A DNA stretch of 64,000 nt, taken from assembly GCA_028713675.1 (NCBI GenBank), contig JAQTNV010000011.1, positions 4,411 to 68,410 on the forward strand. Direction: 5' to 3'. This DNA is from a bacterium. GTDB taxonomy: Bacteria; Desulfobacterota; JAPLJL01. Below the pieces are notes generated by a model. It was not told the origin of the DNA and searched no databases. It was given only the letters and a program-made list of their open reading frames with translations. The position numbers and the translations under genes were made by a program. How positions within the stretch are numbered: the first letter of the stretch is position 1; every line of letters begins with the position of its first letter. Below are positions 3,540 through 63,990 of the stretch, piece by piece.

Positions 3540-4097
3540 TTACGCTGACGGCTTTTTCCGCCGGATCCGGAGCTTGGAAAGCTTGGGGATTTTCGGCATC
3601 CGGGGGGCCCGGATTTTTCGGCCCGCGGGTTTCTTCGGCAGGACCACTCCCGGATTCATCGGAACGGTCAGGACCGGGAAAAGCGCCCGGCGGACTACCC
3701 GCTCGGCCACGCTCCCGATCAGGGCCCGCGACAACCCGGTCCGGCCATGGGTTCCCATGACGATCAGGCTGGCCTGTTCCTCCCGGGTTCCGGCCAGGAT
3801 CTCCTCGTGGGGATCCCCAAAGCGGAGACGGATCTCGATCTTCACTTTGTCGTTCCCTTTATGCTGGGCCATGACCTTGAGCCGGTCCTCAGCTTCTTTT
3901 TCCATCTCCCGGCGAAGGTCGGCCTCGGTCACAATGCCGGAGACAAAAAGCGGGTAGCTGGCCAGGGTCTGGATAACGTGCAGGAGAACGATCGACGACC
4001 CGCAGTTCTCGGAAAGATGAACGGCATATTCCAGGGCCTTCTCCGAATTTTCGGAGAAATCCGTGGGAACCAGGATCTTGGGGAAGACATTAACCAT
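3540..4097 (-). CDS. universal stress protein (UspA family) with basic C-terminal tail
   Basis: It has a Usp fold signature (ILVPTDFSENSEKALEYAV...LLHV...MGTHGRTGLSRALIGSVAERVVRRA). A Lys/Arg-rich tail follows the domain. Confidence 0.7.
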   Translation of the reverse strand: MVNVFPKILVPTDFSENSEKALEYAVHLSENCGSSIVLLHVIQTLASYPLFVSGIVTEADLRREMEKEAEDRLKVMAQHKGNDKVKIEIRLRFGDPHEEILAGTREEQASLIVMGTHGRTGLSRALIGSVAERVVRRALFPVLTVPMNPGVVLPKKPAGRKIRAPRMPKIPKLSKLRIRRKKPSA

Positions 4098-4200
4098 AGT
4101 ATTTAATTAATTAACAGATTTTGCCGGTCAAGCCAAGGCCCTGTTCGGAAAACACGTAAGGCGTAAGGGGTTATACTCACGTTAGGGGTTTTCAGAAAAA

Positions 4201-4368
4201 CCGGGGGGAAGGTTCTCGCGACGCGAACACTTTGGAGATCAGGCTTCGATAAATTCGACGATAAGGTATCTATCGATACGGGCTAGACCCTGCGGGTCAG
4301 CCTGCTAGATTACGGTAGGAACCTATTGTGCGCGGAGCGAAACCTTCCCCCCAAAAAAGAAAAAGAGC
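4201..4368 (+). repeat. structured interspersed element, copy 1 (GGGGGGAAGGTT...AACCTTCCCCCC termini, A-rich 3' tail)
   Basis: It is about 80% identical to copy 2 at 8173-8367. Conserved blocks are CTAGAC, GGGTCAGCCTGC and GGAGCGAAACCTTCCCCCCAAAAAGAAAAA. It lies 115 nt upstream of and co-oriented with the dipeptidase gene. Confidence 0.6.
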
Positions 4369-4479
4369 TAACGAGTGAGATTAAGAAAGCTGACCGCCGG
4401 CCGAAGAAGGCTTATATGCCGTCTGCGATTTGCCGTCTACCTTTTTTCAGGAATTTGAACAGTGTTAGAATAACCCTTC

Positions 4480-5445
4480 ATGGAAAGAATCGCCGACCTC
4501 CATTCCCACGCCCTCCTCAACATGACCTACATGCGGAAGGACCTGTCCAAAAAACATAAGCCTCCCCTGTTCTGGAATCCCCTCAGGAATCACCTGGATC
4601 TGCCCCGGCTTGAAGCCGCGGGTGTGAAGCTCTCGACCTTCAACATTTACGTTCCCTTCAAGTTTCCCTTTAAAAGCTACCAGGAAGGCGTCCACCGGAT
4701 GGCCGATATTTTTTTGGAATTTATGGAGAAAAACTCCACCCGGATCGGGCATGCCCGTTCTTTCTCCGAAATCGAAGCCCTGAACCAGAAAGGGCGGATC
4801 GCCGCGATCCTGGCGGTGGAGGGCGGGCACATCCTGGAAGGCCGCCTCGAAAACCTCGAATATCTGAAATCCCTGGGCATTCTCTACCTGACCCTCGCCC
4901 ACTTCGTGGATAACGATATCGTGGGGGCGGCCTGGGGAAGCAAGCAGGGCCTGACCGGCTTCGGCAAGGAGCTGATGAAGAACCTGCCCGCCGCGCGGAT
5001 CCTGCCCGACGTGGCTCACACCTCGACGCGGGGTTTTTACGAAATTTTCGAGCACTACTCCGGCCCGGTGATTTTTTCCCACGGCGGGGTCCGCCGCTTC
5101 TGCGACGCGGACCGGAACCTCTCCGACGACCAGATCAAGATGATCGCGCAAAGCCGGGGCCTGATCGGGATCATGCTTTACCCCTGGTACCTGAAGCGTT
5201 TTTCCCTGTTCGGCGGTCCGGAACTCATTTCCGACACCTATAAGCACATCGAAACCCTGATCGGACCGGACCGGATCTGCCTGGGCACCGACCTGGACGG
5301 CTACATCCGGACCGTCCGGGGGGTCCGGGACGTGGCCGACCTCCCCGCCCTGCTTGAACGGATCAAGAAGAACCTCGGGCCGGAGCGGGTAGCAAAGCTG
5401 GCCGGGGAAAATCTTTATAACTTTCTGAAGGAAATAAATTTTTAA
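4480..5445 (+). CDS. membrane dipeptidase (peptidase M19 / renal dipeptidase family)
   Basis: Motifs DLHSH..., LDLPRLEAAGVK, AILAVEGGH and LGILYLTLAHF match M19 conserved blocks. Confidence 0.7.
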   Translation: MERIADLHSHALLNMTYMRKDLSKKHKPPLFWNPLRNHLDLPRLEAAGVKLSTFNIYVPFKFPFKSYQEGVHRMADIFLEFMEKNSTRIGHARSFSEIEALNQKGRIAAILAVEGGHILEGRLENLEYLKSLGILYLTLAHFVDNDIVGAAWGSKQGLTGFGKELMKNLPAARILPDVAHTSTRGFYEIFEHYSGPVIFSHGGVRRFCDADRNLSDDQIKMIAQSRGLIGIMLYPWYLKRFSLFGGPELISDTYKHIETLIGPDRICLGTDLDGYIRTVRGVRDVADLPALLERIKKNLGPERVAKLAGENLYNFLKEINF

Positions 5446-5482
5446 CGGTAGACGGCAGACGGTAGACAGTAGACGGGGTAAA
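5446..5482 (+). repeat. GGTAGAC heptamer array immediately after stop codon
   Basis: The sequence is TAAcGGTAGACGGCAGACGGTAGACAGTAGACGGGG. Near-identical arrays follow the stop codons at 18832 and (minus strand) 16982. Confidence 0.6.
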
Positions 5483-7001: not shown

Positions 7002-7111
7002 ATCCCCGCGAAAGCAGGGATCCAAGAGATAAAGAAAAATCTGGATTCCCTGGCCGACACGAGCGTCAGCTAGGGCAGGCCGCATCAAGTGCGGAATGAC
7101 GGAATAAGGCG
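6998..7111. repeat. MITE-like double-hairpin element, copy A (GTCATCC-hp...hp-GGAATGAC)
   Basis: Its ends are tGTCATCCCCGCGAAAGCAGGGATCCAa and CTGGATTCC...GCATCAAGTGCGGAATGACGGAATAAGGCG. The same ends occur at 36619-36741, 39694-39753 and 41248-41284, with compensatory stem changes between copies. Confidence 0.6.
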
Positions 7112-7130
7112 GGAAGGCAATCTCGAACCG

Positions 7131-8006
7131 ATGCCGGAAATGAAAAAAAAGACTGCGGATTTTTGTCTCACTTTAGCACTAAAAGACGTGTACAAACCTT
7201 CCACTATTCCCCTGAAAGATAATTCCTCCGTTCGGATCGGGACTTCGTTGACCAACGACATCCTGATCAACTCTCCGGGGATTTCGCCCCGGCACGCCGA
7301 GATCATTTCCGGCCCGGAAGGATTTGTTCTCCGCGAGCCGGGGGAAAACCGGGAACGGAAACTCGCCCCCGGCCAAAACCTGAGTCTGGGGAACCTGACG
7401 GTTTCCCTGGAATCGGGGAAACCCCGGCTTTCCCGGCCGGCCGCGAAAATAAGTCCGGGAAAATCCTCCCCCGCCAGGCTGCGCGTCATCCTCTTCGCCC
7501 TCATCGGCCTGGCCTTGGTTTTTCTTTTCTTTTATCCCGCGCCCTCGCCACGGACACCGCCCTCCCTGAAGGAGGATAGTGTCCCGGAGACAAAAAGCTC
7601 TCCTTCGCCCGGCGGGGAAATGTCCACCCTTCCGCCCGAGCAGAGAATCTCCCGGGCCCGGGCGTCCCTCGCGCTGGGGGAACAGCGGCTCAAGGATTAC
7701 CGGATCAGTATTGAAAACTTGAGCCTGGCCCGGGCGGAATTCCAGAAGGCGATGATTCTGCTGGAAGGCCAGAGCCCCGCCCCGGATTTCCTGGCCGCCC
7801 TGAATGGCCGGCTCCGGCAGACCGAAAGCCTGCTGGAAGAGGAATTCCGCCGGCGGAAGTTTTCCGCCGAGCAGGCCATCCGTTTCCAGGATCCCGACCG
7901 GGCCGAGCTGGAGCTGAAAAATATCCAGAAGCTTCTCAATGTTCCGGACGACCCCCGTTATCGCTACGCCCAGGAACGTCTGAAGGAAATCGGCAGGGCC
8001 AACTGA
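7131..8006 (+). CDS. FHA domain-containing protein (N-terminal FHA, one TM segment, C-terminal coiled-coil)
   Basis: It has an FHA-like block (IPLKDNSSVRIGTSLTNDILINSPGISPRHAEIISGPEGFVLRE). A hydrophobic helix (LRVILFALIGLALVFLFF) follows. Confidence 0.6.
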   Translation: MPEMKKKTADFCLTLALKDVYKPSTIPLKDNSSVRIGTSLTNDILINSPGISPRHAEIISGPEGFVLREPGENRERKLAPGQNLSLGNLTVSLESGKPRLSRPAAKISPGKSSPARLRVILFALIGLALVFLFFYPAPSPRTPPSLKEDSVPETKSSPSPGGEMSTLPPEQRISRARASLALGEQRLKDYRISIENLSLARAEFQKAMILLEGQSPAPDFLAALNGRLRQTESLLEEEFRRRKFSAEQAIRFQDPDRAELELKNIQKLLNVPDDPRYRYAQERLKEIGRAN

Positions 8007-8089
8007 AATGGCATAGCGCATAGAGCATAGGGCACAGAGTAAACACAATAAGCAGCCTCCGGCCCGGAGGGTAGGCAGTAAGCACCCAA

Positions 8090-8125
8090 AAACAGGTGCA
8101 CCAGAGACAAAAGCACCTGTTTGGA
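8090..8125 (+). terminator. candidate hairpin terminator after FHA gene 1
   Basis: AACAGGTGC and GCACCTGTT form a 9-bp stem around a 13-nt loop. GTTTGG follows. Confidence 0.35.
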
Positions 8126-8172
8126 GATAGGAGATAGGGAACAGAGTATTTATTTTATTGGCTTTTCCAGAG

Positions 8173-8367
8173 CCCCGGGGGAAGGTTCTCGCGACACGAA
8201 CTCTTAGGAAATCAGGCCACGATGAACTCGATGACTAAATATTTATCGATACTGGCTAGACACGGTTGCCCCGAGCGTAGCCGAGGGGCGGGTCAGCCTG
8301 CCGCATTTACGGCACGGCACTTATGGTGAGGGGAGCGAAACCTTTCCCCCAAAAAGAAAAAAATGCC
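8173..8367 (+). repeat. structured interspersed element, copy 2
   Basis: It has the same termini and core as copy 1, plus a ~20-nt internal insertion. It lies 53 nt upstream of and co-oriented with FHA gene 2. Confidence 0.6.
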
Positions 8368-8419
8368 TCATTTGGCTATTTGGCTTGTCGACGAAGAAGC
8401 GAACCTTGCTTCTTAAAGA

Positions 8420-10057
8420 ATGAAAAAGCTGCAGATATACAAAAAAGACGAACTGGTCCGGGAACAGGAACTGGAGAAGGACTCCTACTCCATCGGCCGC
8501 GACCCCCATTGTGATATTCCCCTCGAGGATAATTTTATTTCCCGCCGGCACGCCCGCATCCAGAAATCCGAAACCGGCTGGGTCCTGGAGGACCTGGGCA
8601 GCACCAACGGAACGTTCATCGGGAAGAAAAGGGTCACCCGGCAGAAGCTTTCCGGCGGGGAGGAAATCGGGATGGGCCCTTTCCGGATCAATTTTTCCGC
8701 GGATCCCCCGCCCTGCGAGCCCACCCGCGTGGCTACCGCCGGGGAATCCACCGGGAAAACCGAGGGGCGGGATAAAATCCCCGATAAACCCGTCGCGGTC
8801 CTGGATGGAAAACCCGGCCTGCTTCTCCTCGGCCCGGAAAATCTCCGCCGCTTCTTCCCGCTTCCGGAAAAGCCGGAAGACCGGGTCAAGCTCCCCGAAA
8901 TCCCCGCCGAAATGGTCCGGGAGGGACAAAATTATCTTCTCCGGTTTCCCTCCGGAAAAAACCAGCCGGAAATGGCGATCAAACCCGGATGGCAAAACCT
9001 GCCCCCCGAGTTCTCCTTCCGTCTGATCCAACCGGGGGAGATCGTGCCGATTCCCCCGTCCGCGGCCGCCCCGGCGCGCGGGAAGATCAGGCCTTCCGCC
9101 CTGCTCATCCCCGTCCTGGCTGTAATCCTTCTCCTGCTCCTGGTGCCGGCTCAAACCCTCCGGACCTGGAAAGGGAAAATATTCCGGCAGGGACAGGATG
9201 CTGTTCAAACCGGGAATCAGAATCCTCCGGAGTTTTCCCCTCCGGCCGGATCGAATCCGGCTTCCCCGCCCGCCGAACCGCCGCTCCCTGCGAACCCCCG
9301 GCCCGAAACCTCCTCAGCCGAAACCCCGCTCCCCGCGGGGAAAATCCTCCCGCCTCCCCCGCTCCCCCGGTCCGTCCCCGTAAAACCCGGACCGGCTTCC
9401 CGGACGCCCGAAGTGGTTTTTCCCTCCGAGCCGCTGGGGCCGCAGGAATCCGGCCCGTCCGCCCCGATTCTGCCCGACCGCCTGGCCCGGGGCTTCCAGG
9501 CTTACTTTGCCGGCAACCTGGGCCAGGCCCGGGAGGAATGGACTTCCGTCGCCCGAAAAATCGCCCCGGCCGAGCCGGACCGGGAAAAAGCCCTGCGCCT
9601 CGCCCGGCTCGCGGGCCAGCTCCGCGGCGAACTTTTGCTCGAGCTGGAGGCTGAAAAACAGAAAATTCTGAAGTCCGCCCGGCTGCATTTCGAGGAGGCG
9701 CAGAAACTGGACGGCGAGATCTCCCCGGGCGGTAAAGGCCGGATCCTGCCGGAAGCCCGGGAGAGGCTGGCCCGGTTCACCTCCCGGGAAGGCGAGGAAG
9801 ACCTTCAGCAAGGCGATTACCCGGCGGCTTTTCTCCGCTTCCGGGAAGCCCTCCGCCTCCTGCCCGAGCTGGCCCCGGCCCGCAACGGGCTGGCGCTGCT
9901 CGCGGAAAAAGCCCAGGTCCTCTTCCGGGAGGCCTACCAGCTGGAATCAGCCAACCGGGAGGAAGCCCGGGGTAAATACCGTCTGATCATGCAGATGCTC
10001 CCCCCGGAAGACGAATACTACCAGAAGGCCTCGCGCCGGCTGGAGGCGGGGCCGTGA
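8420..10057 (+). CDS. FHA domain-containing protein with Pro-rich linker, TM helix and TPR/coiled-coil-like C-terminal region
   Basis: It has an N-terminal FHA block (YSIGRDPHCDIPLEDNFISRRHARIQKSETGWVLEDLGSTNGTF). A TM helix (ALLIPVLAVILLLLLV) and a Pro-rich segment follow. Confidence 0.7.
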   Translation: MKKLQIYKKDELVREQELEKDSYSIGRDPHCDIPLEDNFISRRHARIQKSETGWVLEDLGSTNGTFIGKKRVTRQKLSGGEEIGMGPFRINFSADPPPCEPTRVATAGESTGKTEGRDKIPDKPVAVLDGKPGLLLLGPENLRRFFPLPEKPEDRVKLPEIPAEMVREGQNYLLRFPSGKNQPEMAIKPGWQNLPPEFSFRLIQPGEIVPIPPSAAAPARGKIRPSALLIPVLAVILLLLLVPAQTLRTWKGKIFRQGQDAVQTGNQNPPEFSPPAGSNPASPPAEPPLPANPRPETSSAETPLPAGKILPPPPLPRSVPVKPGPASRTPEVVFPSEPLGPQESGPSAPILPDRLARGFQAYFAGNLGQAREEWTSVARKIAPAEPDREKALRLARLAGQLRGELLLELEAEKQKILKSARLHFEEAQKLDGEISPGGKGRILPEARERLARFTSREGEEDLQQGDYPAAFLRFREALRLLPELAPARNGLALLAEKAQVLFREAYQLESANREEARGKYRLIMQMLPPEDEYYQKASRRLEAGP

Positions 10058-11924: not shown

Positions 11925-12012
11925 ACACTATGGACACGATGGACACTACGAACTCAATGGACGCCTTCCGTCTTACCTTTGACCTTTGAGCTTTCAGCTT
12001 TGAGCTCTTTGC
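11925..12012 (+). repeat. ~75-nt direct repeat (GACACTATGGACAC...GAACTCAATGGACGCCTTCCGTCTTACCTTTGACCTTTGAGCTTT), left copy
   Basis: It is near-identical to 13487-13562, including a 45-nt exact core. The two copies bracket the MFS transporter gene. Confidence 0.7.
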
Positions 12013-13309: not shown

Positions 13310-13486
13310 TTAGGTCATAGGTGATAGGTTAAAACCCAACACCCAATACCCATCGTGTCTATTGTGTCGTCGTGTTCCTTGTGTCTATTGGGTCGAATTA
13401 TCCAATTATATTCTGACGCTACGGATTTATCCCGAAGGGTTTATCTGAGGGACTCTATGAACCCTAAGAACACAATGGATCATTAT

Positions 13487-13562
13487 TTCGACACTATGGA
13501 CACTATGGACACTATGAACTCAATGGACGCCTTCCGTCTTACCTTTGACCTTTGAGCTTTGA
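13487..13562 (+). repeat. ~75-nt direct repeat, right copy
   Basis: It matches 11925-12012. Diverged relatives occur at 16862-16925 and 63845-63900. Confidence 0.7.
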
Positions 13563-13570
13563 CCTATTAC

Positions 13571-16743: not shown

Positions 16744-16934
16744 GGTCTCCTTTTCGAATAATTAGGTGATCGGTTGTAGGTCATAGGTTATAGGTTATGG
16801 GTTAAGGAAAACCCAACCCCCGGGCTTCTTTAAAACCCAAGAAACCCAACGGACCGTTTTTGTTCTTTCGACACTATAGACACAATGGACACTATGAACT
16901 CTATGAACGCCTAACCTCTTACGCCTCACATCTC

Positions 16935-16990
16935 ACGCTTAGCGGCCTTCTGTCTACCGTCTACCGTCTACCTTCTGCCGTCTACCTTCT
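16935..16990 (-). repeat. GGTAGAC heptamer array overlapping the stop codon of the HIT gene
   Basis: The minus strand reads AGAAGGTAGACGGCAGAAGGTAGACGGTAGACGGTAGACA. The TAG stop lies inside the first unit. Confidence 0.6.
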
Positions 16991-17461
16991 AACTTTTTTC
17001 AGCATCCTGGCCGTCTTGGCCAGCTCCGCCGGGTCCCGCATCCGGACGAGTTCCCCCGGGGCTTCCTGGATCTTCTCCAGGGCGTTGAAAAAACGGTCTA
17101 GGAGATCCCCGCTATAAGTCGGGATCAGGAAAATATGCACATGCGGGATCCTCCGGCCCCGGGCATACATGCAGACAAAATCCGGTTTCAGCGTCTTGCT
17201 GATCTTGCGGGCCACCGTCCGGGCCGTCCGGAAAAGATCCATCGTCTCTTCCTCCGAAAGATCGTGCCACCAGACCACGTGCCGCTTCGAGATCACCAGG
17301 CAATGCCCCTGGGCGAAGGGGAAAATGTCCAGGATCGCGAGGGAATGTTTGCCCTCGTGAACCCGGTGGGCCCGGGCTTTCCCCGCGACGATATCGCAAA
17401 AAGCGCATTTCTTACCGTGGGTTGCCGCCATAATTTTTCCTTTCCTCCCGGTTACTTTCAT
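16982..17461 (-). CDS. HIT family (histidine triad) hydrolase
   Basis: It has the HVHIFLIP histidine-triad motif. An N-terminal Cys pair (CAFCD) is typical of HIT proteins. An internal ATG at 17431 is an alternative start. Confidence 0.8.
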   Translation of the reverse strand: MKVTGRKGKIMAATHGKKCAFCDIVAGKARAHRVHEGKHSLAILDIFPFAQGHCLVISKRHVVWWHDLSEEETMDLFRTARTVARKISKTLKPDFVCMYARGRRIPHVHIFLIPTYSGDLLDRFFNALEKIQEAPGELVRMRDPAELAKTARMLKKVRR

Positions 17462-28305: not shown

Positions 28306-28405
28306 AAAAGGGAGCCCGCCAGGGGCTCCCCTACGTTTCATATCTGACTTTTAAAGGTTTTTTTCTTAATTCTTTGCCCTTTGCTCTCTGCCCTTTGCTC
28401 TTTGC

Positions 28406-29506
28406 CTATTTTTTGGCCGGGTCCACGTCCGGATCCAGGTAGGGCAGGAAAGCCTTCAGCTTCCCCTTCTCCTCTAAAATTTTCATCGCCATGTCCCGGT
28501 TGGTGGGAGCGACTTCCTTGGCTCTTTTCGACCGGACCATCTTAAACGCCTGCTCCGGGCACCCGGTCACGCACAGCCCGCAGCCGATGCAGCGCTTCGG
28601 GTCCAGCACCGGCCGGTCCTTTTTCATCGTGAGCGCTTTCATCGGGCAGCGTTTTTCCACGCAGATCCCGCAGCCGGTGCAGGCTTTCCGGTCGAGCTTG
28701 GGGACGAATCCCGAATTGGAGAGCACATTGGGGTTCCCGTGATGGGTCATGGCCCGGAGGAGGCCGCAGCAGCAGGTGCAGCAGTTGCAGATGAAGGTCA
28801 GCTTGTCCTGGGCGTTGTTCACCTGGCGCACGAGGCCCAGGTCGTCAAATTTCTTGAGCATCTGCTTCATCTCGTCCTTGGTCAGGTAGCGCCCGTATCC
28901 CCTCTCCACCAGGAAGGTGCAGGTATCGTCGAACATCATGCAGGACTCGGTGGGGTTGTCGCATTTCCGCATCGCGCTCCGGCAGGCGCAATGCGCCACC
29001 CCCACCACCTTGGCCCGGTCGATCATTTCGTAGACCTTTTCGTAGGGCAGGGTCCCCTGTTCGCTCGCGACCTCTTCCCCGACCGGGATGATCCGGGAGA
29101 ACGGCATGGACTTGGAGCCGAACTCCTTGCAGGCTTTCGAGAGGTATTTCTGCCAGAGCGCGGCCAGGCGGTCGATGGTGGGGTTTCTCTCCCCCTTCAT
29201 GAAAGGAAATTCAAATACCCCGGGCATGATCGGGACCAGGGCGTACTGTTTCTCCCCTTCCCTCTCCTTGTAGAAGACCATCCCTTTGTCGGCAAGGGAT
29301 TCGAGCCGTTTCACGGCTTCCTCCGCCTTGACCCCCGCCCGGCGGGCGACCGCCTTCACCGGGAAAGGCCGGAACCCGAGGCCGAGGGCCACCTTGGCCT
29401 CCTCCGGGGTGAAGAGGATTTTCAGGATCTCGATGATCTCAGGGGCCGGCGGACAGCCGGCGGGGTGCTTGTCCAGAAGCTCTCGCAAACCTTCATAAGC
29501 GTCCAT
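28406..29506 (-). CDS. 4Fe-4S dicluster domain protein (paralog of 22492..23667)
   Basis: It has CNCCTCCC, two ferredoxin-type Cys motifs and the shared block YALVPIMPGVFEFPFMKG. Confidence 0.6.
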   Translation of the reverse strand: MDAYEGLRELLDKHPAGCPPAPEIIEILKILFTPEEAKVALGLGFRPFPVKAVARRAGVKAEEAVKRLESLADKGMVFYKEREGEKQYALVPIMPGVFEFPFMKGERNPTIDRLAALWQKYLSKACKEFGSKSMPFSRIIPVGEEVASEQGTLPYEKVYEMIDRAKVVGVAHCACRSAMRKCDNPTESCMMFDDTCTFLVERGYGRYLTKDEMKQMLKKFDDLGLVRQVNNAQDKLTFICNCCTCCCGLLRAMTHHGNPNVLSNSGFVPKLDRKACTGCGICVEKRCPMKALTMKKDRPVLDPKRCIGCGLCVTGCPEQAFKMVRSKRAKEVAPTNRDMAMKILEEKGKLKAFLPYLDPDVDPAKK

Positions 29507-30825: not shown

Positions 30826-30960
30826 TTAAAGCGGTTTCGAGTTTCGGGTTTCTAGTTTCTGGTTAAACCAATCAAGAATGTTAATTAGATTTAACTCGAA
30901 ACCCGAAACTATAAACTCGAAACTATCTTACTTCTCACCTTTTACTTCTCACTTTTTGAC
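30826..30960. repeat. inverted CGAAACY heptamer arrays between convergent genes
   Basis: GTTTCGAGTTTCGGGTTTCTAGTTTCTGG pairs with CTCGAAACCCGAAACTATAAACTCGAAAC, forming a long imperfect palindrome. Confidence 0.55.
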
Positions 30961-31607
30961 GAGTTTTCCTTCATTTTTCGGCCCCAGTTCCAGCCCAGGA
31001 GCATGCCCTTTACCCCTTCCGACACCCAGCTCCGGTCCTTCCCCGCCCCGATCAGAACCATTATTTCCTGCCCCACCGATACCGCGACCAGGATCCGCGC
31101 CAGCACCTCCGGCAGATAATCCAGGTTAATCCGGCCCTCCTCCGCGGACTCCCGGATATCCTGCGAAATCAGGTTGACAATCTCTTCCATGAAGTCCCGC
31201 ATGGCGGCCTGAATATCCGGGTCATTCACGCTGATGGCGTTCAGCCAGATTTTGGAAACGTTCGCGTTAACCTCGGCCGTATACTGGTAATAAGTATCGA
31301 ATACCCTGCCGTATCGCTCCCGCATATCGCCGCCCTGGTTCAAAATATGCGAAGTGGTCACTATGATGAACCGGCGCACGTCCTTTATTACCTCGAGAAA
31401 CAAGGCCTTCTTGCTCGGAAAATGCAGGTAGATCGTCGGCTCCGTCACCCCCGCCGCCCGGGCGATCTTGGCGGTAGTAGCCCCGTGATAGGTCTCCGCG
31501 GCGAAAACCCGCTGGGCGGTCCGGAGGATCAGCTTCCGCCGATCTTCCCCCTTCATCCTTTTTACCTTGGTACTGGTTTTCCTGACCAATCTTTTCTTCC
31601 TGTTCAT
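30942..31607 (-). CDS. TetR/AcrR family transcriptional regulator
   Basis: It has an N-terminal TetR HTH (RRKLILRTAQRVFAAETYHGATTAKIARAAGVTEPTIYLHF). An SD AAGGAG sits before the ATG at 31607. Alternative starts are 31643 and 31556. Confidence 0.75.
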   Translation of the reverse strand: MNRKKRLVRKTSTKVKRMKGEDRRKLILRTAQRVFAAETYHGATTAKIARAAGVTEPTIYLHFPSKKALFLEVIKDVRRFIIVTTSHILNQGGDMRERYGRVFDTYYQYTAEVNANVSKIWLNAISVNDPDIQAAMRDFMEEIVNLISQDIRESAEEGRINLDYLPEVLARILVAVSVGQEIMVLIGAGKDRSWVSEGVKGMLLGWNWGRKMKENSSKSEK

Positions 31608-31942
31608 TCCCTGCTCCTTACTAATGTCCCAATTTTTAATCACTAATTAACATTATTTTCAGGCCGAACACAACACCAGGACGTTTCCTCCCTGTTTCCG
31701 GTCCGCAACCTGACGGCACCCCGGTTCCCGGACCGGTCCGGCCTTGGAGCCGGCCGCCGCACAACGACAGCCGTCCGCAGACCGCCGACCGCCGCAAATG
31801 CAATTCGTTAGGAACGTTTAAAGCGTCTGTCTGGTCTGTCTGGTTTCTTCTGTTTACTGCCTACTGCCTACTGCTTACCCTCCGGGCCGGAGGCTGCCTA
31901 CTCCCTGCGCTTTGTCCTTTGCACTATGCCCTATGCTCTTTG

Positions 31943-33394
31943 TTATCCCTTGATCACCCCCATCGGCTTTAGCCGTGCGACCTTCCGGGCGATCCCGGCC
32001 GCCTGGACGCAGTCCACCACATTGGCCACTTCCTTGTAGGCCTCGGGCATCTCCTCGGACAGGGTCTCCCGGCTCGAAGCCATGACCACAATGTTCAGAT
32101 CCTCCAGCTCCCGGGCGATGGAGCGCCCCCGGGCCCTTCTGATCGCCTCGGTGCGGGACATGACCCGCCCGGCCCCGTGGCAGGCGGAGCCCCAGGATTC
32201 CGCCATCGCCCGAGGCGTGCCGACCAGGACGAAGCTCTCCCGGCCCATGTCCCCCGGGATCAGGACCGGCTGGCCGGCCTGGCGGTAGTCCTCCGGGACC
32301 GCGGGATGCCCCGCCGGGAAGGCCCGGGTCGCCCCCTTGCGGTGGACGCAGACCTTCCGTTCTTTTCCGTCGACGAGGTGGGTTTCGATCTTGGCGATGT
32401 TGTGGGCCACGTCGTAAACCAGCTGGAGACCGATTTTCCCCGGCGCCTGCCCGAGCGCCCGGGAAAAGGACTCGCGGACCCAGTGGGTAATGATCTGGCG
32501 GTTGGCGAAGGCGTAGTTGACCGCCGCCGCCATCGCCCCCAGGTATTCCCGGCCCTCCTTCGAATCGATCGGGGCGCAGCAGAGCTGGCGGTCGGGGAGC
32601 TCGATCTTGTAGCGGCGGGCGGCCTCGGAGAGGATCCGGATGTAATCGTCGCAGACCTGGTGCCCCAGCCCCCGGGACCCAGTGTGGACCTGGATGACGA
32701 CCTGGTCCTTAAATAACCCGAAAACCCGGGCCACCGTCTCGTCATAAATTTCCGCCACGTAATCGATCTCGACAAAGTGGTTCCCGGAGCCGAGCGTGCC
32801 GAGCTGGGGCCGGCCCCGTTCCTTGGCCCTGGGGCTGACCACCTCCGGGTTCGCCCCTCCCATCTTCCCGCTTTCCTCGATGTGGGCCAGGTCCTCCTTT
32901 TCGCCGAAACCCTGGCTGACCGCCCAGGCCGCCCCCTGGGAGAGGACGTCCCGCTCCTCGTGCGCGGAAAGCCTGATCGGGCCCTTGGATCCCACCCCGG
33001 AGGGAATGGCGGAAAAAAGGGCGGAAACAATCTCGGCCACCCGGCCCTCAAGATCCTTCTTTTCCAGTTCCGATCGGATCAGCCGCACCCCGCAGTTGAT
33101 GTCGTAGCCCACCCCGCCGGGGGAAACCACCCCCTCGGAAAGGTCGAAGGCCGCCACCCCGCCGATCGGGAAACCGTAGCCCCAGTGGATGTCCGGCATC
33201 GCCAGGGAATACTTGATGATTCCCGGGAGCTGGGCCACGTTGGCCACCTGCACCGGGCTTTCGTCCCCGGCCACACCCTTCATGATGGTTTCGTCGGCGT
33301 AGATGATCCCGTCCACCCGCATCTTCCCCTGCTTCGGGATGCGGACATGAGACTCATCCATCCGGACGAATTCAAAATCCGACGCTTTGGTCAT
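31943..33394 (-). CDS. rtcB: RtcB family RNA-splicing ligase
   Basis: It has GYDINCG, the HNHAG-region equivalent and a GMGR-like C-terminus. An upstream in-frame ATG at 33442 is also possible. Confidence 0.85.
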   Translation of the reverse strand: MTKASDFEFVRMDESHVRIPKQGKMRVDGIIYADETIMKGVAGDESPVQVANVAQLPGIIKYSLAMPDIHWGYGFPIGGVAAFDLSEGVVSPGGVGYDINCGVRLIRSELEKKDLEGRVAEIVSALFSAIPSGVGSKGPIRLSAHEERDVLSQGAAWAVSQGFGEKEDLAHIEESGKMGGANPEVVSPRAKERGRPQLGTLGSGNHFVEIDYVAEIYDETVARVFGLFKDQVVIQVHTGSRGLGHQVCDDYIRILSEAARRYKIELPDRQLCCAPIDSKEGREYLGAMAAAVNYAFANRQIITHWVRESFSRALGQAPGKIGLQLVYDVAHNIAKIETHLVDGKERKVCVHRKGATRAFPAGHPAVPEDYRQAGQPVLIPGDMGRESFVLVGTPRAMAESWGSACHGAGRVMSRTEAIRRARGRSIARELEDLNIVVMASSRETLSEEMPEAYKEVANVVDCVQAAGIARKVARLKPMGVIKG

Positions 33395-33586
33395 ATTTTG
33401 CCCCTGTTTTTTCAGTATGAGGTAGGCTCTCCGACGAATCAAGCACTATAATAGGAAAGAGCCAAGAGGCGAGAGACAAGCGACAAGAGCCTAAGAGTTA
33501 GGAAGCCTAAAAGCCAAAATACGTTTTCTGATTTTTGATAAAACTCTATGCTCTATGCCCTATGCTCTATGCCGAGATAGATAAAC

Positions 33587-35278: not shown

Positions 35279-35426
35279 CAAAAAACAGGGGAAAAACGGT
35301 TGCTGGGTGGTTAGGTTGTTAGGTGGTTCAAAAAACGAAATAAACGATCTAAACGTTCTGAGCGCTTTGCGCTTTGTTCTTTACCTATCACCTATGACCT
35401 ATCACCCATGACCTTTTTTCCCGGCA

Positions 35427-36070: not shown

Positions 36071-36210
36071 ATGTCATCCTAATTCCGCTTATTATCTCTA
36101 ATGTCATCCTGAGTCCGCTCACCATACTTTAATGTCTGAGTCCGCTCACCATACTTTAATGTCATCCTGAGCCCGCCTCTGGCGGGAGAAGGATCTGCTT
36201 TTTGGGATTT
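36071..36210 (+). repeat. tandem partial duplications of the GTCATCCTGAG...GAAGGATC element
   Basis: ATGTCATCCTAATTCCGC..., ATGTCATCCTGAGTCCGCTCACCATACTTTA (x2) and a complete unit ATCCTGAGCCCGCCTCTGGCGGGAGAAGGATCTGCTTTTT appear in sequence. Confidence 0.6.
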
Positions 36211-36566: not shown

Positions 36567-36618
36567 TGTTAATCCTCCTTAAACTTTAATAACAATGCTT
36601 TATTGTGTTTTTTTGTTG

Positions 36619-36741
36619 GCATCCCTGTACCTTTTTTTGTCATCCCTGTACCTTTTTTTGTCATCCCTGCGAAAGCAGGGATCCAGACAAATTAAAAATA
36701 CTGGATTCCGCATCAAGTGCGGAATGACGAAATAAGGCGAA
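36619..36741. repeat. MITE-like double-hairpin element, copy B, with tandem partial duplications of the left end
   Basis: GGCATCCCTGTACCTTTTTTTGTCATCCCTGTACCTTTTTTTGTCATCCCTGCGAAAGCAGGGATCCAG...CTGGATTCCGCATCAAGTGCGGAATGACGAAATAAGGCG. Confidence 0.65.
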
Positions 36742-40092: not shown

Positions 40093-40290
40093 CCTTTTCC
40101 CTCCAAATTCAAAGACATTATATATATAAAATATCTTCGGCCGGAAAATATAGATTGTCAAATTTGGGCAGAGGGACGGTAGACCACGGATGTTATATCG
40201 GGAAATAGCGAGATCCTTCGCTCCGCTCAGGATGACAGAAAAAAATGATCAGAATAACAGAAAAAATGATCAGAATGACAATCTAAATAA

Positions 40291-55183: not shown

Positions 55184-55870
55184 TCAAGGAATGCTGCTGG
55201 CGGAGAGATAATTGGCCACGGTCCCCAGGTCCTCCCATCTCCCCGCGGCGACCTCCCCGAACACCGGCCGGCCCGCGGCGGCCATCCGCAGAAAAGCCGG
55301 GATCACCGACGACGGTTGCGGGTCAAGCCAGGGGAAAACCGCGGGTTCGAGGATGGAGATCCCGGTGAAAAGGTGGGGTTTTCCGCCCCCCGTCTTCCCC
55401 CGGTCGGGAGGCAGGATCCGCCCGTCCGGGTCGAGGTAAATCCCCCCGTAGAGGAAAGTGTCCATCCCGGCCTTCAGCACCAGGGTCACTTCCGCCTTCC
55501 GTTCCCGGTGGTTCTGCACCAGCCGCGCCAGCGGCAGTTCAAAATACACGTCGGAATTGACGGTGAGAAAAGTCCCTTCCCGGAAAAATCCCTCCACCCG
55601 CTTCAATCCTCCCCCCGTGCCCAGGAGTTCCGTTTCGGGGGAGTAGCTGATCCGGAGGCCCCGGGTGCCGCCGTCCCCGAGATAGGCGCGGATTTTTTCC
55701 CCCCGGTGATGGAGATTGATAATCACTTCGTCCACCCCGGCTTCCCGGAGCCGGAGGAGGGTCCAGTCGATCGCCCGCCGGCCCCGGAGGGGCAGGAGGG
55801 CCTTGGGCAGGGTCCGGCTGAACGGCTCGAGCCGGGTTCCCTTCCCGGCGGCGAAAATCATGGCTTTCAT
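55184..55870 (-). CDS. nucleotidyltransferase (MurU-like N-acetylmuramate-1-phosphate uridylyltransferase / sugar-1-P NTP transferase family)
   Basis: It starts MKAMIFAAGKGTRLEPFSRTLPKALLPL, an NTP_transferase G-x-G-T-R motif. Confidence 0.7.
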   Translation of the reverse strand: MKAMIFAAGKGTRLEPFSRTLPKALLPLRGRRAIDWTLLRLREAGVDEVIINLHHRGEKIRAYLGDGGTRGLRISYSPETELLGTGGGLKRVEGFFREGTFLTVNSDVYFELPLARLVQNHRERKAEVTLVLKAGMDTFLYGGIYLDPDGRILPPDRGKTGGGKPHLFTGISILEPAVFPWLDPQPSSVIPAFLRMAAAGRPVFGEVAAGRWEDLGTVANYLSASSIP

Positions 55871-55947
55871 AATCGCAGCATACTTCCTGGTGACGGGTTA
55901 ATGGATCATGTGTGATGGCGGTGATTGCAATTTTGGTCGTCATACTG

Positions 55948-55972
55948 AGATCCAGCGAAGGATCTCACCATA
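55948..55972 (+). repeat. GTCATACTGAGATCC...GGATCTC hairpin element copy
   Basis: It is a variant of the GTCATCCTGAG...GAAGGATC family and directly abuts structured element copy 3. Confidence 0.45.
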
Positions 55973-55974
55973 GT

Positions 55975-56255
55975 CTTTTTCTTTTTTTTGGGGGGAAGGT
56001 TTTTTATCCTGATGAGCAGCACTGCTGCGAAGAATGGACGCTCCCCCTTCGACAGAGCTCAGGGTAAACCTCACAATAGGTACCGTACCGCAAATTAGGC
56101 AGGCTGACCCGCAGGGTCTAGCCAGTACCGAAAAATAATTTATCGTCGAGTTCATCGTGGCCTGATTTCCGAAGAGTTCGTGTCGCGCCCCTCTGGGGTT
56201 CTCGTCCTGAGGACCCCATCGGGGTCGAAGGAAGAACCTTACCCCCGGGCTTTCA
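55975..56255 (-). repeat. structured interspersed element, copy 3 (minus orientation, ~65-nt internal insertion)
   Basis: Its reverse complement matches copies 1 and 2 (GCGCGACACGAACTCTTCGGAAATCAGGCCACGATGAACTCGA...CTGGCTAGACCCTGCGGGTCAGCCTGC...AACCTTCCCCCCAAAAAAAAGAAAAAG). It lies between the amgK-like and murU-like genes, co-oriented with both. Confidence 0.6.
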
Positions 56256-56310
56256 TAAAACCCATGACCTATGACCCAATGCCTATCACCTGATTCCACC
56301 TGCTTACTGC

Positions 56311-57384
56311 CTACTTATCAATTTTCAATTCCCTGTCGATGATTTTCTCCAGGCCCGCGAGTTCCGGGAAAAGGGCGAAGCGGGGACGGATCCTCCGGAG
56401 GACGCCCGGGATGAAGGGGAGAAACTTCGGGTTGTCTTTTACCCGCTTGATATAGGCGAACCGGCCGGCCGCCTTCAGACCCCGCTGGACCCCGGCCAGG
56501 TAAAACATCCGGCGGAAGGGTTCACGCCCGTCCGGTTTCCCCCCCGCCTTTTCCCAGGCGGAAAGATAGTAATCGAGAAGTTCTTCGACCAGGTCGGGGG
56601 TAAAATCCACGTACGCGTCAAAGAGAAGCGAGGCCAGGTCATACTGGCGGAGGGCCAGGAGAGCGTCCTGGAAATCGATGATCTTGATCCCGCCGTCCTG
56701 GACCAGGAGGTTCCGGCTGTGATAATCCCGGTGGCAGAAATACCCCCGTTCCTCCGCGAGTTCCCGGGCGAGTTTCCGGAACCCCCGCTCGAGTTCGGGG
56801 GCCTCGGGAAGCCCGGAGGGCAGGAGCTCCTCCCGGAAGTGCTGAAACTCCCATTCGAAAAGTCCGGCGTCGAACCGGCGGTGAAAGGCCAGGCAATCCG
56901 GGTCGGGCCGCCGCTCGGCCCTAAGCTGGAGCTCGACCAGGAGTTCCAGCGCCTGGTGATACAAACTCAGTTCCGCCCGCGGGCCGGCCGGGAGGGCCAG
57001 GTCGTAGAGCAGGGTGTCGCCCAGGTCCTCGAGGTAAATAATCCCCCGTTTGAGATCGTGATAAACAACCCGGGGGACCGGCAGTCCCAGTTTTTCCAGG
57101 TAGCGCTGGAGATTGAGAAAGGGAATTTCGTCGCGGGGTTTTTCCCCGGCGGTGATCTCTTCCGCCGGCTGGCGGTGGGGATCGGCGTCGGCCAGCACCA
57201 TCAGGATCAGGGATTTCGCCCCCGCCCCGGAAACCCGGTAGTAACTCCGGTTGGAGGCGTCCCCGGGCAGGCGGATCACCCCGGGATTTTCCGGAAGCCT
57301 GATCCCCTCCGGCAGGGCCCGGAAAGCCGCGGGGAAAAACCCCGGTTCCTGCGCCCGGTCCCGGGATCGGCCTCCGTTTTCCAT
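56311..57384 (-). CDS. aminoglycoside-phosphotransferase-fold kinase (AmgK-like anomeric MurNAc/GlcNAc kinase)
   Basis: It has an APH-fold catalytic loop (CHRDYHSRNLLV) and IIDFQDA. The likely start is at 57384 (MENGG...). It pairs with the MurU-like gene. Confidence 0.65.
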   Translation of the reverse strand: MENGGRSRDRAQEPGFFPAAFRALPEGIRLPENPGVIRLPGDASNRSYYRVSGAGAKSLILMVLADADPHRQPAEEITAGEKPRDEIPFLNLQRYLEKLGLPVPRVVYHDLKRGIIYLEDLGDTLLYDLALPAGPRAELSLYHQALELLVELQLRAERRPDPDCLAFHRRFDAGLFEWEFQHFREELLPSGLPEAPELERGFRKLARELAEERGYFCHRDYHSRNLLVQDGGIKIIDFQDALLALRQYDLASLLFDAYVDFTPDLVEELLDYYLSAWEKAGGKPDGREPFRRMFYLAGVQRGLKAAGRFAYIKRVKDNPKFLPFIPGVLRRIRPRFALFPELAGLEKIIDRELKIDK

Positions 57385-58682
57385 CAGACTTCGAACGGAT
57401 CCCGGATCACGACGGTCTGCCCGCGCTCCGCTCCCAGGGAAAGGATAAGGACCGGGATCCCGGTCAATTCCTCCACCCGCGCGAGATAGCGCCGCACCGC
57501 CGGAGGAAGGTCGGAAATCCGGCGCACCGCGCCCAGGTCCTCCCGCCAGCCCGGGAGATCCTCGTACTCCGGCTGGCACTCGGAAAGGATTTTCAGGTCG
57601 GCCGGGAACTCGGTCAACCGTTCCCCTTTGTAACGGTAAGCCACCGCCAGGCGGATCGGGTCGAGCCCGGAGAGGACGTCGATCTTGGTCAGGGCCAGCC
57701 CGCCCAGGCCGTTGAGCCGGCTGGCGTAGTTCAGGGCCACCAGGTCCAGCCAGCCCGTCCGCCGCCGCCGCCCGGTGGTGGCGCCGAATTCCCCGCCCGC
57801 CTCCACCAGCCGGTCTCCGGTCTTATCGAAAAGCTCGGTGGGAAAGGGGCCGGCACCGACCCGGGTGGTGTAGGCCTTGGTCACCCCCACCATCAGGAGG
57901 GAGAGCCGGCCGTAGCCCAGGCCCGACCCGGAAAAGATGCCCCCGGAGGTGGTCACCGACGAGGTGACGAACGGATAGGTTCCGTGATCGAGGTCGAGCA
58001 TGCTCCCCTGGGCGCCTTCGAAAAGGATCCGGCTGCCTTTCTTGATTTCCTGGTCCAGGATCCGGGAGGTGTCCGCGATCAGGCCCCGGATTTTGCTCCC
58101 GAAATCCAGGAAGGGCTCGAGGATCTCACCCAGGGTGAAGCCTTTTCCCCCCAGGACTTTTTCAATGTAGGCGTTGTTTTCCTCCAGGTTGACGGCGAGC
58201 TTCTTTTTGAATTCCTCTGGATCGAGCAGGTCCCCCACCCGGAGCCCGGACCGCCGGGCCTTGTCCTCGTAGGCGGGGCCGATGCCTCGGCCGGTGGTCC
58301 CGATTTTCGCCGCCCCCCGGCGCTCCTCCCGGAGCACGTCGATCCGCTGGTGGTAGGGCATGATCAGGTGGGCCCGGTCGCTGAGGCGGATCCGGTCTTC
58401 GTTTTCCAGAAAGCCGGAGCTCTTCAGGCGGGCGATCTCCTCCACCAGGACCTGGGGATTAACCACCACCCCGTTCCCGATCAGGCAGAGCCGCCCCGGG
58501 CGGAGAATTCCGGAGGGGACGAGGTGGAGAACAATCTTCTGGTTCCCGATCACGCAGGTGTGTCCCGCGTTGTTCCCGCCCTGGTAGCGCACCACCACGG
58601 GGGCCTTCTCGGTCAGGAAGTCCACCACCCGGCCCTTGCCTTCGTCGCCCCACTGCGCGCCGAGAATTCCGACTCCTTGCAT
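57384..58682 (-). CDS. purA: adenylosuccinate synthetase
   Basis: It starts GAQWGDEGKGRVVD and carries the GGNNAGHT P-loop. Confidence 0.9.
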   Translation of the reverse strand: MQGVGILGAQWGDEGKGRVVDFLTEKAPVVVRYQGGNNAGHTCVIGNQKIVLHLVPSGILRPGRLCLIGNGVVVNPQVLVEEIARLKSSGFLENEDRIRLSDRAHLIMPYHQRIDVLREERRGAAKIGTTGRGIGPAYEDKARRSGLRVGDLLDPEEFKKKLAVNLEENNAYIEKVLGGKGFTLGEILEPFLDFGSKIRGLIADTSRILDQEIKKGSRILFEGAQGSMLDLDHGTYPFVTSSVTTSGGIFSGSGLGYGRLSLLMVGVTKAYTTRVGAGPFPTELFDKTGDRLVEAGGEFGATTGRRRRTGWLDLVALNYASRLNGLGGLALTKIDVLSGLDPIRLAVAYRYKGERLTEFPADLKILSECQPEYEDLPGWREDLGAVRRISDLPPAVRRYLARVEELTGIPVLILSLGAERGQTVVIRDPFEV

Positions 58683-60523: not shown

Positions 60524-60662
60524 AGCTCAAAGGTCAAAGGTGAACGGTAAGGCGTAAGAAATAAGATGAAAAGCGTAAAAATAAAAATTCGGTCTGTTTG
60601 CCTTTTTAATTATCATTTTTCACCTTGCATCTTTCACCTTTCACCTTTCACCCGCTTTTGAT

Positions 60663-63759: not shown

Positions 63760-63900
63760 ATACAGGCTTTGGGTCAGAGGTGATGGGTGTTGGACTACGG
63801 CGTCCATCGAGTCCATTGTGTCCATCGTGTCTATTGGGTCTAATTAATCAATCTTCTTTTGACACTACGAACTCTATGAACACTACGAACGCTTTTTATT

Positions 63901-63990
63901 GAAGAGCGGGACCTCCCCCCAAAAAGAAAAAAAGGCCGCGGGTAAAGGTTGCTAGTCTCCACTTTTCTTCCGTTTTCCCCACTTTTTCTC
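63901..63990 (+). repeat. partial fourth copy or junction of the structured element, truncated by window end
   Basis: GAGCGGGACCTCCCCCCCAAAAAGAAAAAAA is 3'-end-like. GGCCGCGGGTAAAGGTTGCTAGTCTCC, directly after it, resembles the 5' end of copy 3. Confidence 0.35.

Follow-up and report, generated by a model that had tools for sequence, protein, structure and literature searches.

A structured and possibly mobile intergenic repeat family in an uncultured sediment lineage

A 64,000-nucleotide stretch of contig JAQTNV010000011.1 (hereafter the window) carries three full copies of a structured element that a first-pass annotation described as always lying upstream of, and co-oriented with, a gene. 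Three identities were offered for it: a MITE (miniature inverted-repeat transposable element), a promoter-bearing repeat or a small RNA (sRNA) gene family. What is this element, and what maintains its fold? Here we describe a real, multi-copy and previously undescribed repeat family in which compensatory changes back three helices. We read it as a non-autonomous mosaic repeat akin to MITEs and REPINs, an interpretation that in our judgement could equally well be right or wrong.

A multi-copy family with a common fold

A family profile used with nhmmer matches the window in the three places originally reported, at 4203-4364 (+, E = 1e-47; copy 1), 8177-8362 (+, E = 2e-55; copy 2) and 55978-56246 (-, E = 4e-41; copy 3), and detects no further full-length copy there. 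The three copies can be aligned over the entire core. Two internal blocks, CGCGACRCGAAC and GGGTCAGCCTGC, have three zero-mismatch occurrences each in the window, all confined to these copies. The paired termini, GGGGG(G)AAGGTT / AACCTTCCCCCC, and the 3′ end, which in every window copy reads C5-6 A5-8 G A5-7, are likewise as first described. However, the conserved unit begins about 20 nt before the annotated start, with a T-rich stretch followed by a small hairpin (4185-4202, 8160-8174 and 56263-56247), and the block given as CTGGCTAGAC reads CGGGCTAGAC in copy 1.

The expectation that three copies in one window point to a larger family proved correct. A core-motif scan for GGCTAGAC-N(3-33)-GGGTCAGCCTGC, covering one genome per species, returns 14 true copies besides 4 chance hits. 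All 14 come from two lake-sediment metagenome-assembled genomes (MAGs) labelled ‘Proteobacteria bacterium’, LacPavin SED1_MAG_56_8 and SED4_MAG_55_23, and at least 11 copies of the exact core motif are found in one fragmentary MAG. An independent 3′-end anchor, GRAGCGRRACCNNYCCCCCAAAA, recovers 76 metagenome loci, and nhmmer on the recovered loci yields 68 full-length copies (61 distinct) and about 20 partial ones. These come from independent assemblies, since besides the window they include two MAGs from NCBI and several projects from JGI and ENA, with the caveat that metagenome contigs may be chimeric at repeats (for example, L041 versus L084, and L005). The element is roughly 185-290 bp long and non-coding, with no conserved open reading frame (ORF), and is bounded by the family caps GGGGGGNNGGTTCTCGC / GCGAAACCNNCCCCCC. 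Two core subtypes exist: type A, with GGCUAGACCC...GGGUCAGCC (43 distinct copies), and type B, with GGCGAGGCCC...GGGACCGCC (18 distinct copies), which occur together on one contig (L006). The element is undescribed in Rfam and in full-text literature searches, and neither plasmid and phage collections (searched with blastn) nor viral contigs (searched with a pattern scan) contain a match to it.

The host is an isolated, uncultured, deep-branching sediment lineage. Relatives of the PurA protein encoded in the window fall at 87-93% and 71-72% identity, after which the best matches are at or below 57%; lineage-labelled matches in this last range are mostly MAGs of Desulfobacterota/Deltaproteobacteria.

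The scaffold shared by the copies consists of a small 5′ hairpin, a 12-bp helix (P1), a bulged pyrimidine, a 4-bp helix (P1b), a tandem G.A, helix P2 of 7 bp, a head built of the hairpins Pa, Pb, P4 and P5, and a common tail, CCCCCC-AAAAAGAAAAAA. Positions are numbered according to L069 (163 nt), except that copy 1 is given in window coordinates. As RNA, copy 1 has a predicted folding energy of -79.2 kcal/mol (z = -6.6). The small 5′ hairpin is kept with compensating variants among copies (GGGTTTTCAGAAGCCC, GGTTTTTCAAAACC, GGCTTTTCCAGAGCC and others). A T-rich stretch 5′ of this hairpin is complementary to the tail in many copies (UUUUUCUU with AAGAAAAA), forming a putative pairing called P0; in L005, the inverted repeat made by this stretch and the tail is unbroken over 24 nt.

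We scored the fold on a MAFFT alignment of 60 distinct copies that was built from sequence only, and the covariation counts are therefore unbiased toward the proposed structure. Paired cells amount to 90.6%, compared with 85.1% in shuffles and at most 49% when partner columns are slid. Similarly, the covariation score is 0.188, whereas shuffles give 0.099 (0 of 500 as high) and slid columns at most 0.062. Changes on both sides are seen at 18 pairs. In the closing helix (P1 and P1b), where 98.8% of cells are paired, P1 positions 7 and 8 show the double changes AU, UA, UG and GC, pair 12/141 changes from UA to CG in 8 copies, and pair 14/140 does so in 3 copies. P2 appears as CCCAAAC/GTTTGGG, CTCACAC/GTGTGAG and CGTGCAC/GTGCGCG, and one subclass, CACGAAC/GTGAGGG, has purine–purine pairs instead. 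In P4 (96.4% paired), UA is replaced by GC in 16 copies, AU by GC in 8 and CG by UA in 4. Compensatory changes thus back P1, P2 and P4, as expected for the structured element first annotated; the inner helices Pa, Pb and P5 are only moderately supported.

Several nucleotides within this framework hardly change at all. The bulged A of P4 (A83) is invariant while the surrounding pairs vary. The tandem G.A is nearly invariant (G18, A19 and A136 are invariant and G135 is present in at least 90%) while its neighbouring pairs vary. In addition, the loop motifs AACUCGAUGA, GAUUACG and AUUG are common to both core subtypes. Insertions accumulate mainly in the P4 loop, where copies carry an additional 15, 24 or 48 nt, and extra hairpins also occur on both sides of the P1/P1b junction, in the gap between P4 and P5 and in the gap between the small hairpin and P1. 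The extra sequence of copies 2 and 3 is located in the P4 loop and in the junctions of the closing helix, in agreement with the loop-like positions proposed for it at first reading.

The ratio of G.U to A.C pairs on the reported strand is 17:5 in P1 and P1b and 5:2 in P4 (22:7 together), and 11:11 in P2. Because G.U exceeds A.C in P1 and P4, the data favour one functional strand, the reported one, a pattern compatible with either RNA or folded single-stranded DNA.

Placement among genes and turnover between relatives

Genes beside the copies were called by a simple codon-usage ORF caller, making these calls crude, and context counts are non-redundant, with the same locus in different samples removed. 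The downstream gene is co-oriented for all three full copies in the window, with tail-to-start-codon distances of 115, 56 and 105 nt for copies 1, 2 and 3, just as the initial description had it. Across the family, however, only 21 of 50 copies have a co-oriented gene downstream, and 30 of 45 have one upstream (p = 0.036). Among 41 copies, 19 lie in convergent intergenic regions, 10 are in tandem settings in sense orientation, 7 are in tandem settings in antisense orientation and 5 lie in divergent regions. This pattern is one of 3′-end enrichment in which divergent promoter regions are avoided and neither orientation is preferred between co-directional genes (10:7). The rule ‘always upstream and co-oriented’ is a small-sample impression from the window.

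The neighbours are unrelated housekeeping genes, among them those for PdxA, MurB, glycosyltransferases, acyl-CoA dehydrogenase and radical SAM enzymes. The flanks of about 60 copies contain no recurrent protein family.

Presence and absence of the element differ at three orthologous intergenic regions. Copy 3 is absent in L095, a close relative (PurA 93% identical) in which the site holds 254 nt of other repeats, and in L096 (PurA 72%) the two genes that flank copy 3 overlap by 4 nt. Copy 2 is missing from L098/L099 (FHA2 84% identical), where the gap is 90 nt compared with 413 nt in the window, and from L100 (FHA2 60%), where it is 40 nt. The reverse case is a type-B copy downstream of adh_short in L098, for which the window has only repeat arrays at the corresponding place.

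Between relatives at 84-93% protein identity, repeat content appears to turn over wholly while gene order is kept. The intergenic pairs that cannot be aligned are 7980-8440 versus L098/L099/L100, 55870-56311 versus L095:12373-12626, and 13310-13570 versus L098:5700-6322. A separate observation concerns a GC-rich stretch of about 45 nt, CCTGACGGCACCCCGGTTCCCGGACCGGTCCGGCCTTGGAGCCG (window 31700-31745 and L074:1938-1985), which is kept though the rest of its intergenic region differs. It lies upstream of a TetR-family gene (30942-31643, -) and may be an operator or leader.

Explanations for the family

The element has several characteristics of MITEs, in that it is small, non-coding and multi-copy, and carries 16-bp imperfect terminal inverted repeats with A/T-rich extensions. 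Of the three identities first offered, the MITE-like one comes closest. We infer mobility itself from the sporadic occurrence of copies at orthologous sites, their unrelated neighbours, their enrichment in convergent regions, their presence in either orientation and their insertion within operons. On these grounds we interpret the element as a lineage-specific MITE/REPIN-like non-autonomous mosaic repeat whose single-stranded fold is a substrate of copying machinery, and we put the prospects of this interpretation at about even.

If this interpretation is correct, copies would be gained and lost between close relatives and would land between unrelated genes, including inside operons. In single-stranded form, the element has a near-continuous closing helix of about 33 bp (the putative A/U-rich P0, P1, the bulge, P1b, the tandem G.A and P2) capped by a four-hairpin junction, a fold that sets it apart from ordinary MITEs. 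A putative trans-acting copying enzyme would recognize this fold on single-stranded DNA or RNA, such that only copies that keep the fold propagate. Where a copy is co-transcribed, its long duplex would probably act as a determinant of mRNA processing or stability, either as an RNase III-type target or as a barrier to exonucleases. Correia and ERIC elements provide a precedent for such an mRNA-level effect, having orientation-dependent effects on mRNA processing and stability that involve RNase III and RNase E, respectively (PMC2229807).

Several observations weigh against this interpretation. The first-pass annotation named clear target-site duplications (TSDs) as the mark of a plain MITE, and none is detectable: the longest common flank substring averages 5.45 in matched flanks and 5.35 +/- 0.12 in mismatched ones, in a test that is blind to duplications of 2-3 bp because the 5′ boundary is inexact. 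No transposase, RAYT, TnpB/IscB or reverse transcriptase is found in the window (47 gene products compared with Pfam, which are most of the window’s genes) or in the searched flanks of about 60 copies. There is also no clean pair of filled and empty sites from which an exact boundary could be read, because orthologous intergenic regions differ completely and cannot be aligned beyond the stop codons. Furthermore, the invariant junction nucleotides, the bulged A and the tandem GA exceed the needs of any described MITE and point to a specific function as RNA or ribonucleoprotein (RNP). Finally, recombination or gene conversion among mosaic repeats could yield the same pattern.

Comparison with known repeats places the element near, but apart from, two groups. 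Like the Correia/NEMIS, ERIC/IRU, RUP and YPAL elements, it falls in the 100-300 bp range, is non-coding, has many copies and is intergenic, with copies that can lie between co-transcribed genes; as in such structured MITEs, its terminal inverted repeats would pair the 5′ end with the 3′ end in a transcript, and related organisms differ in whether a given site holds a copy (PMC2229807). It differs from structured MITEs in that it has no detectable TSD or TA termini, is not A+T-rich and has no cognate insertion sequence in the window or the searched flanks. Its interior is a four-hairpin junction with invariant bulged or unpaired nucleotides and covarying nested helices, and it has two core subtypes as well as caps that can be exchanged onto other interiors.

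The second group consists of repetitive extragenic palindromic (REP) sequences, REPINs and BIMEs, which are mobilised by RAYT transposases of the Y1 HUH type. These sequences are extragenic, are biased to gene 3′ ends and convergent regions, lack TSDs and form mosaics with short repeats, and compensatory changes maintain their hairpins, which are believed to work as single-stranded DNA in folded form. The distribution and hairpin conservation of REPINs resemble those of the element. However, the hairpins of REPs span 20-40 nt and the simple hairpins of REPINs about 100 nt, whereas the element has a core of 165 nt with several helices, and no RAYT is seen in the window or the searched flanks.

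The same ornate interior that sits uneasily with a plain repeat would suit a structured RNA with a function of its own (for example, a scaffold that binds proteins, a family of sRNAs acting in trans or a new small ribozyme) that has been multiplied across the genome. The fold would then be kept for host benefit or an RNA-level activity and not for DNA mobility. We regard this main rival as possible but doubtful. The multi-hairpin junction, with its invariant unpaired nucleotides, the P4 bulged A and the tandem G.A flanked by covarying pairs, speaks for it, along with the excess of G.U over A.C on the reported strand, the scaffold and several loop motifs common to two core subtypes, the restriction of extra hairpins to loops and junctions and the lack of an Rfam match. 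It is difficult to reconcile with copies that sit in either orientation between co-directional genes (10:7), are not kept at orthologous sites and share their caps with interiors made of repeat arrays and devoid of the core. A trans-acting RNA would also be unusual in having dozens of near-identical copies in each genome, and no conserved promoter or terminator accompanies the copies. Conservation reaches no further than about 22 nt on the upstream side of P1 and 13 nt past the helix, leaving no conserved promoter; this disfavours both the promoter-bearing repeat suggested at the outset and any sRNA gene that carries a conserved promoter. A new structured RNA class in which the head has a biochemical function, as a self-processing ribozyme, an RNP or guide scaffold for a mobile-element enzyme, or a retro-type template or recognition RNA, is also conceivable, if on balance unlikely. 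In that case RNA, rather than a DNA transposase site, would be the unit of propagation, which would also account for the intergenic turnover and heptamer arrays of the clade.

HEARO/omega-RNAs accompany mobile elements, come in multiple, sometimes ORF-less, copies, and are large and ornate like the element. A guide-RNA scaffold resembling the omega-RNA or reRNA of IscB, IsrB or TnpB, or a bridge RNA, could be imagined in ORF-less, non-autonomous copies whose variable 3′ flank serves as the guide. A length of 160-290 nt, the elaborate conserved fold, the many copies with a mobility-like distribution, the lack of TSDs as in IS200/IS605 elements and a sharp 3′ end followed by unrelated sequence fit this idea. 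We nevertheless consider it very unlikely: neither HEARO nor any other Rfam model matches at E values up to 10, no IscB, IsrB, TnpB or IS110 recombinase gene lies beside the approximately 60 sampled copies or in the window, and a closing helix that joins the 5′ and 3′ ends with A/T-rich caps is unlike known omega-RNA architecture. Still less probable is a cis-regulatory, riboswitch-like 5′ leader or promoter-bearing repeat serving the co-oriented downstream gene. The position of the full window copies, 56-115 nt upstream of such a gene in three cases of three, suggested it, but the family-wide counts (21 of 50 co-oriented, 19 of 41 convergent) do not bear this out. The downstream genes are functionally unrelated, the FHA2 and murU orthologues of relatives do without the element, and the copies have no conserved -35/-10, expression platform, sequestering structure or terminator; copy 1 has a sigma70-like site with an extended -10 on its downstream side, ending 8 nt ahead of the ATG. 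The probability that the family reflects chance similarity or an artefact of assembly is negligible. Metagenome assemblies can be chimeric at repeats, and L041 and L084 share their 5′ halves and differ in their 3′ halves while L005 has an inverted duplicated flank, but the E-values in the window range from 1e-41 to 1e-55, the assemblies are independent, and in each copy the 5′ arm matches the 3′ arm.

Known RNA classes and motifs were also compared with the element. At the gathering threshold, Rfam 15, whose families include riboswitches, ribozymes, RNase P, tmRNA, SRP, 6S, HEARO and Y RNA, gives no hits over the whole window, and with E values up to 10, copy 1 and eight related loci return only unrelated noise outside or at the edge of the copies; the earlier statement that the element matches neither RNase P, tmRNA, SRP or 6S RNA nor a common riboswitch class stands. 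ARAGORN reports no tRNA or tmRNA-like gene. By eye, a UUCGAUA stretch looks like a T-loop, but the sequences on either side of it do not pair, and a hammerhead-like reading of CUCGAUGA ... CGAAAC misfits the CUGANGA core, with no Rfam ribozyme model responding. The tandem GA is not part of a K-turn, as the required 3-nt bulge is absent from most copies, leaving a plain tandem G.A within a helix. A sigma-54 site (GG-N10-GC) in the small 5′ hairpin fits only copy 2, and covariation there indicates a hairpin. GGA loops of the CsrA type are not kept among copies, a pairing of the GGAUUACG loop with AAUC into a pseudoknot shows no covariation, and a small ORF in a recurrent 3′ module (GAAGGAGG...) has neither a conserved start codon nor a conserved frame. 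An intrinsic terminator was rejected as well: on both strands a T-rich tract precedes the helix and an A-rich tract follows it, and a terminator scan is empty at the copies.

Copies and repeat modules in the window

The coordinates of full and partial copies are collected in Table 1. Copy 1 occupies the divergent intergenic region between the genes for Usp (3540-4097, -) and an M19 dipeptidase (4480-5445, +). A sigma70-like match with an extended -10 (TTTTCA-16-TG-TAGAAT) spans 4444-4471 and ends 8 nt before the dipeptidase ATG, and transcription of the dipeptidase gene may thus begin downstream of copy 1 and give an mRNA almost without a leader. Copy 2 carries an inserted hairpin of about 24 nt in its P4 loop (about 8264-8289). 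Copy 3 has three added hairpin modules, located after the P1 5′ strand (56232-56188), after the P2 3′ strand (~56068-56046) and before the P1 3′ strand (~56038-56003). In one of the two partial copies, a hairpin of 9-mer arrays (63802-63890) replaces the structured core, an architecture that is also found in L071 and L024.

Table 1. Element copies in the window and the parts of copy 1
Feature	Position	Strand	Basis
Copy 1, minimal type A without insertions	4185..4364	+	nhmmer E = 1e-47; fold
Copy 1 small 5′ hairpin GG(G)UUUU-loop-AAA(R)CC(C), directly before closing helix	4185..4202	+	fold; compensating variants
Copy 1 P1 5′ strand 4203-4214 (pairs with 4341-4352), bulged C 4215, P1b 4216-4219; joint partner 4337-4352	4203..4219	+	
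Copy 1 tandem G.A, 5′ half; partner GA 4335-4336	4220..4221	+	kept in almost all 60 copies
Copy 1 P2 5′ strand; partner 4328-4334	4222..4228	+	
Copy 1 P4, GGCU-A-GACCC / GGGUC-AGCC, bulged A at 4285	4281..4302	+	
Copy 1 P5 hairpin with conserved GGAUUACG-type loop, then conserved AUUG junction	4303..4327	+	GC 10 / GU 7 at one pair
Copy 1 3′ strands of P2, tandem GA, P1b and P1 (‘3′ cap’ GGAGCGAAACCTTCCCCCC)	4328..4352	+	
Copy 1 conserved A-rich tail AAAAAAGAAAAA	4353..4364	+	high information content to +13 past the C-run
Copy 2, type A, between FHA-domain genes 7089-8006 and 8420-10057	8160..8363	+	nhmmer E = 2e-55
Copy 3, type A, splits amgK-like (56311-57579) / murU-like (55184-55870) pair	55976..56263	-	nhmmer E = 4e-41
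Partial or variant copy, 3′ cap and tail GAGCGGGACCTCCCCCCAAAAAGAAAAAAA (63905-63933; match 63896-63933), without 5′ cap	63802..63933	+	
Partial copy, 5′ cap only GGGTTTCTTGGGTTTTAAAGAAGCCCGGGGG (about 16817-16850), then heptamer array to next gene’s start	16770..16850	-	

The element is one module of a clade-specific mosaic of intergenic repeats. Its caps also enclose heptamer arrays, (GCATGGA)n ... (GCGGTCG)n, or hairpins made of inverted heptamer or nonamer arrays, and such alternative interiors are seen in L031, L055, L075, L081, L071, L052:655-825 and window 63802-63933. Arrays of period 7, 9, 14 or 21 occupy most intergenic regions of the window, where Tandem Repeats Finder reports 55 rows (for example, at 5445-5476, 8011-8039, 11977-12006, 16763-16991, 28371-28406, 33544-33572, 35383-35414 and 60614-60652), and the unit varies from one array to the next (ACGGTAG, GCATAGR, GTCTACC, GACACTATG and others). 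These surroundings, as distinct from the element, resemble cyanobacterial short tandemly repeated repetitive (STRR) sequences and the TAACTGA repeats of Beggiatoaceae, which are short tandem repeats confined to intergenic regions (PMC4679880). Unlike those, the arrays here differ in unit from array to array and are combined with a structured repeat that has the same caps.

Two REP-like hairpins and a further module belong to the same mosaic. The first hairpin, a GC-rich palindrome of the form CCTCCGGCCCG..(TAGGGCCTA)..CGGGCCGGAGG, occurs in the window at 8056-8070 and about 31878-31892, and within copies L016, L017, L009, L047 and L026, where it separates the small hairpin from P1 or P4 from P5. 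The second, GAGATYSYTTCGC-N-GCTCRSRATGAC, is often found 10-30 nt past the element tail; its sites include window 55925-55960 (-) and 40227-40280 and the regions downstream of copies in L007, L012, L035, L065 and L068. A separate recurrent module, ATGCYTCATTTSGTTATTAGGATTGTCGAAGGAGG, is found after the tails of several copies, including copy 2, where it spans 8364-8419. The compound locus at L074:2040-2530 (minus) joins the truncated 5′ half of a type-B copy, arrays of heptamers, one complete type-A copy and then a further 3′ module that has a cap and a tail of its own, and thus shows nesting or recombination between family members.

Three further observations were made at individual loci. The copy at L005:419-765 lacks the small 5′ hairpin, and 35 bp of its 3′ flank recur, perfectly inverted, in the 5′ flank, giving a perfect inverted repeat of about 59 bp that could be a foldback or template-switch product or an assembly artefact. 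A gene for the RNA ligase RtcB (window 31943-33442, -; Pfam E = 6e-180) adjoins a repeat-rich intergenic region. Near-perfect tandem duplications at 36109-36163 (27 nt x 2.0, 100%) and 36611-36669 (21 nt x 2.8, 94%) lie among short ORFs that have no Pfam match.

If the element is a mobile, MITE/REPIN-like repeat as we propose, it would be an unusually ornate bacterial non-autonomous repeat, in which selection acts on a multi-helix single-stranded fold and not just on terminal repeats. Because it splits operons (amgK/murU and FHA/FHA), it probably affects the processing of polycistronic mRNAs. The element also breaks metagenome assemblies, and could serve as a clade-specific marker. Should the head domain turn out to be active by itself or to have a protein partner dedicated to it, either the RNA class or the mobility mechanism would be new.

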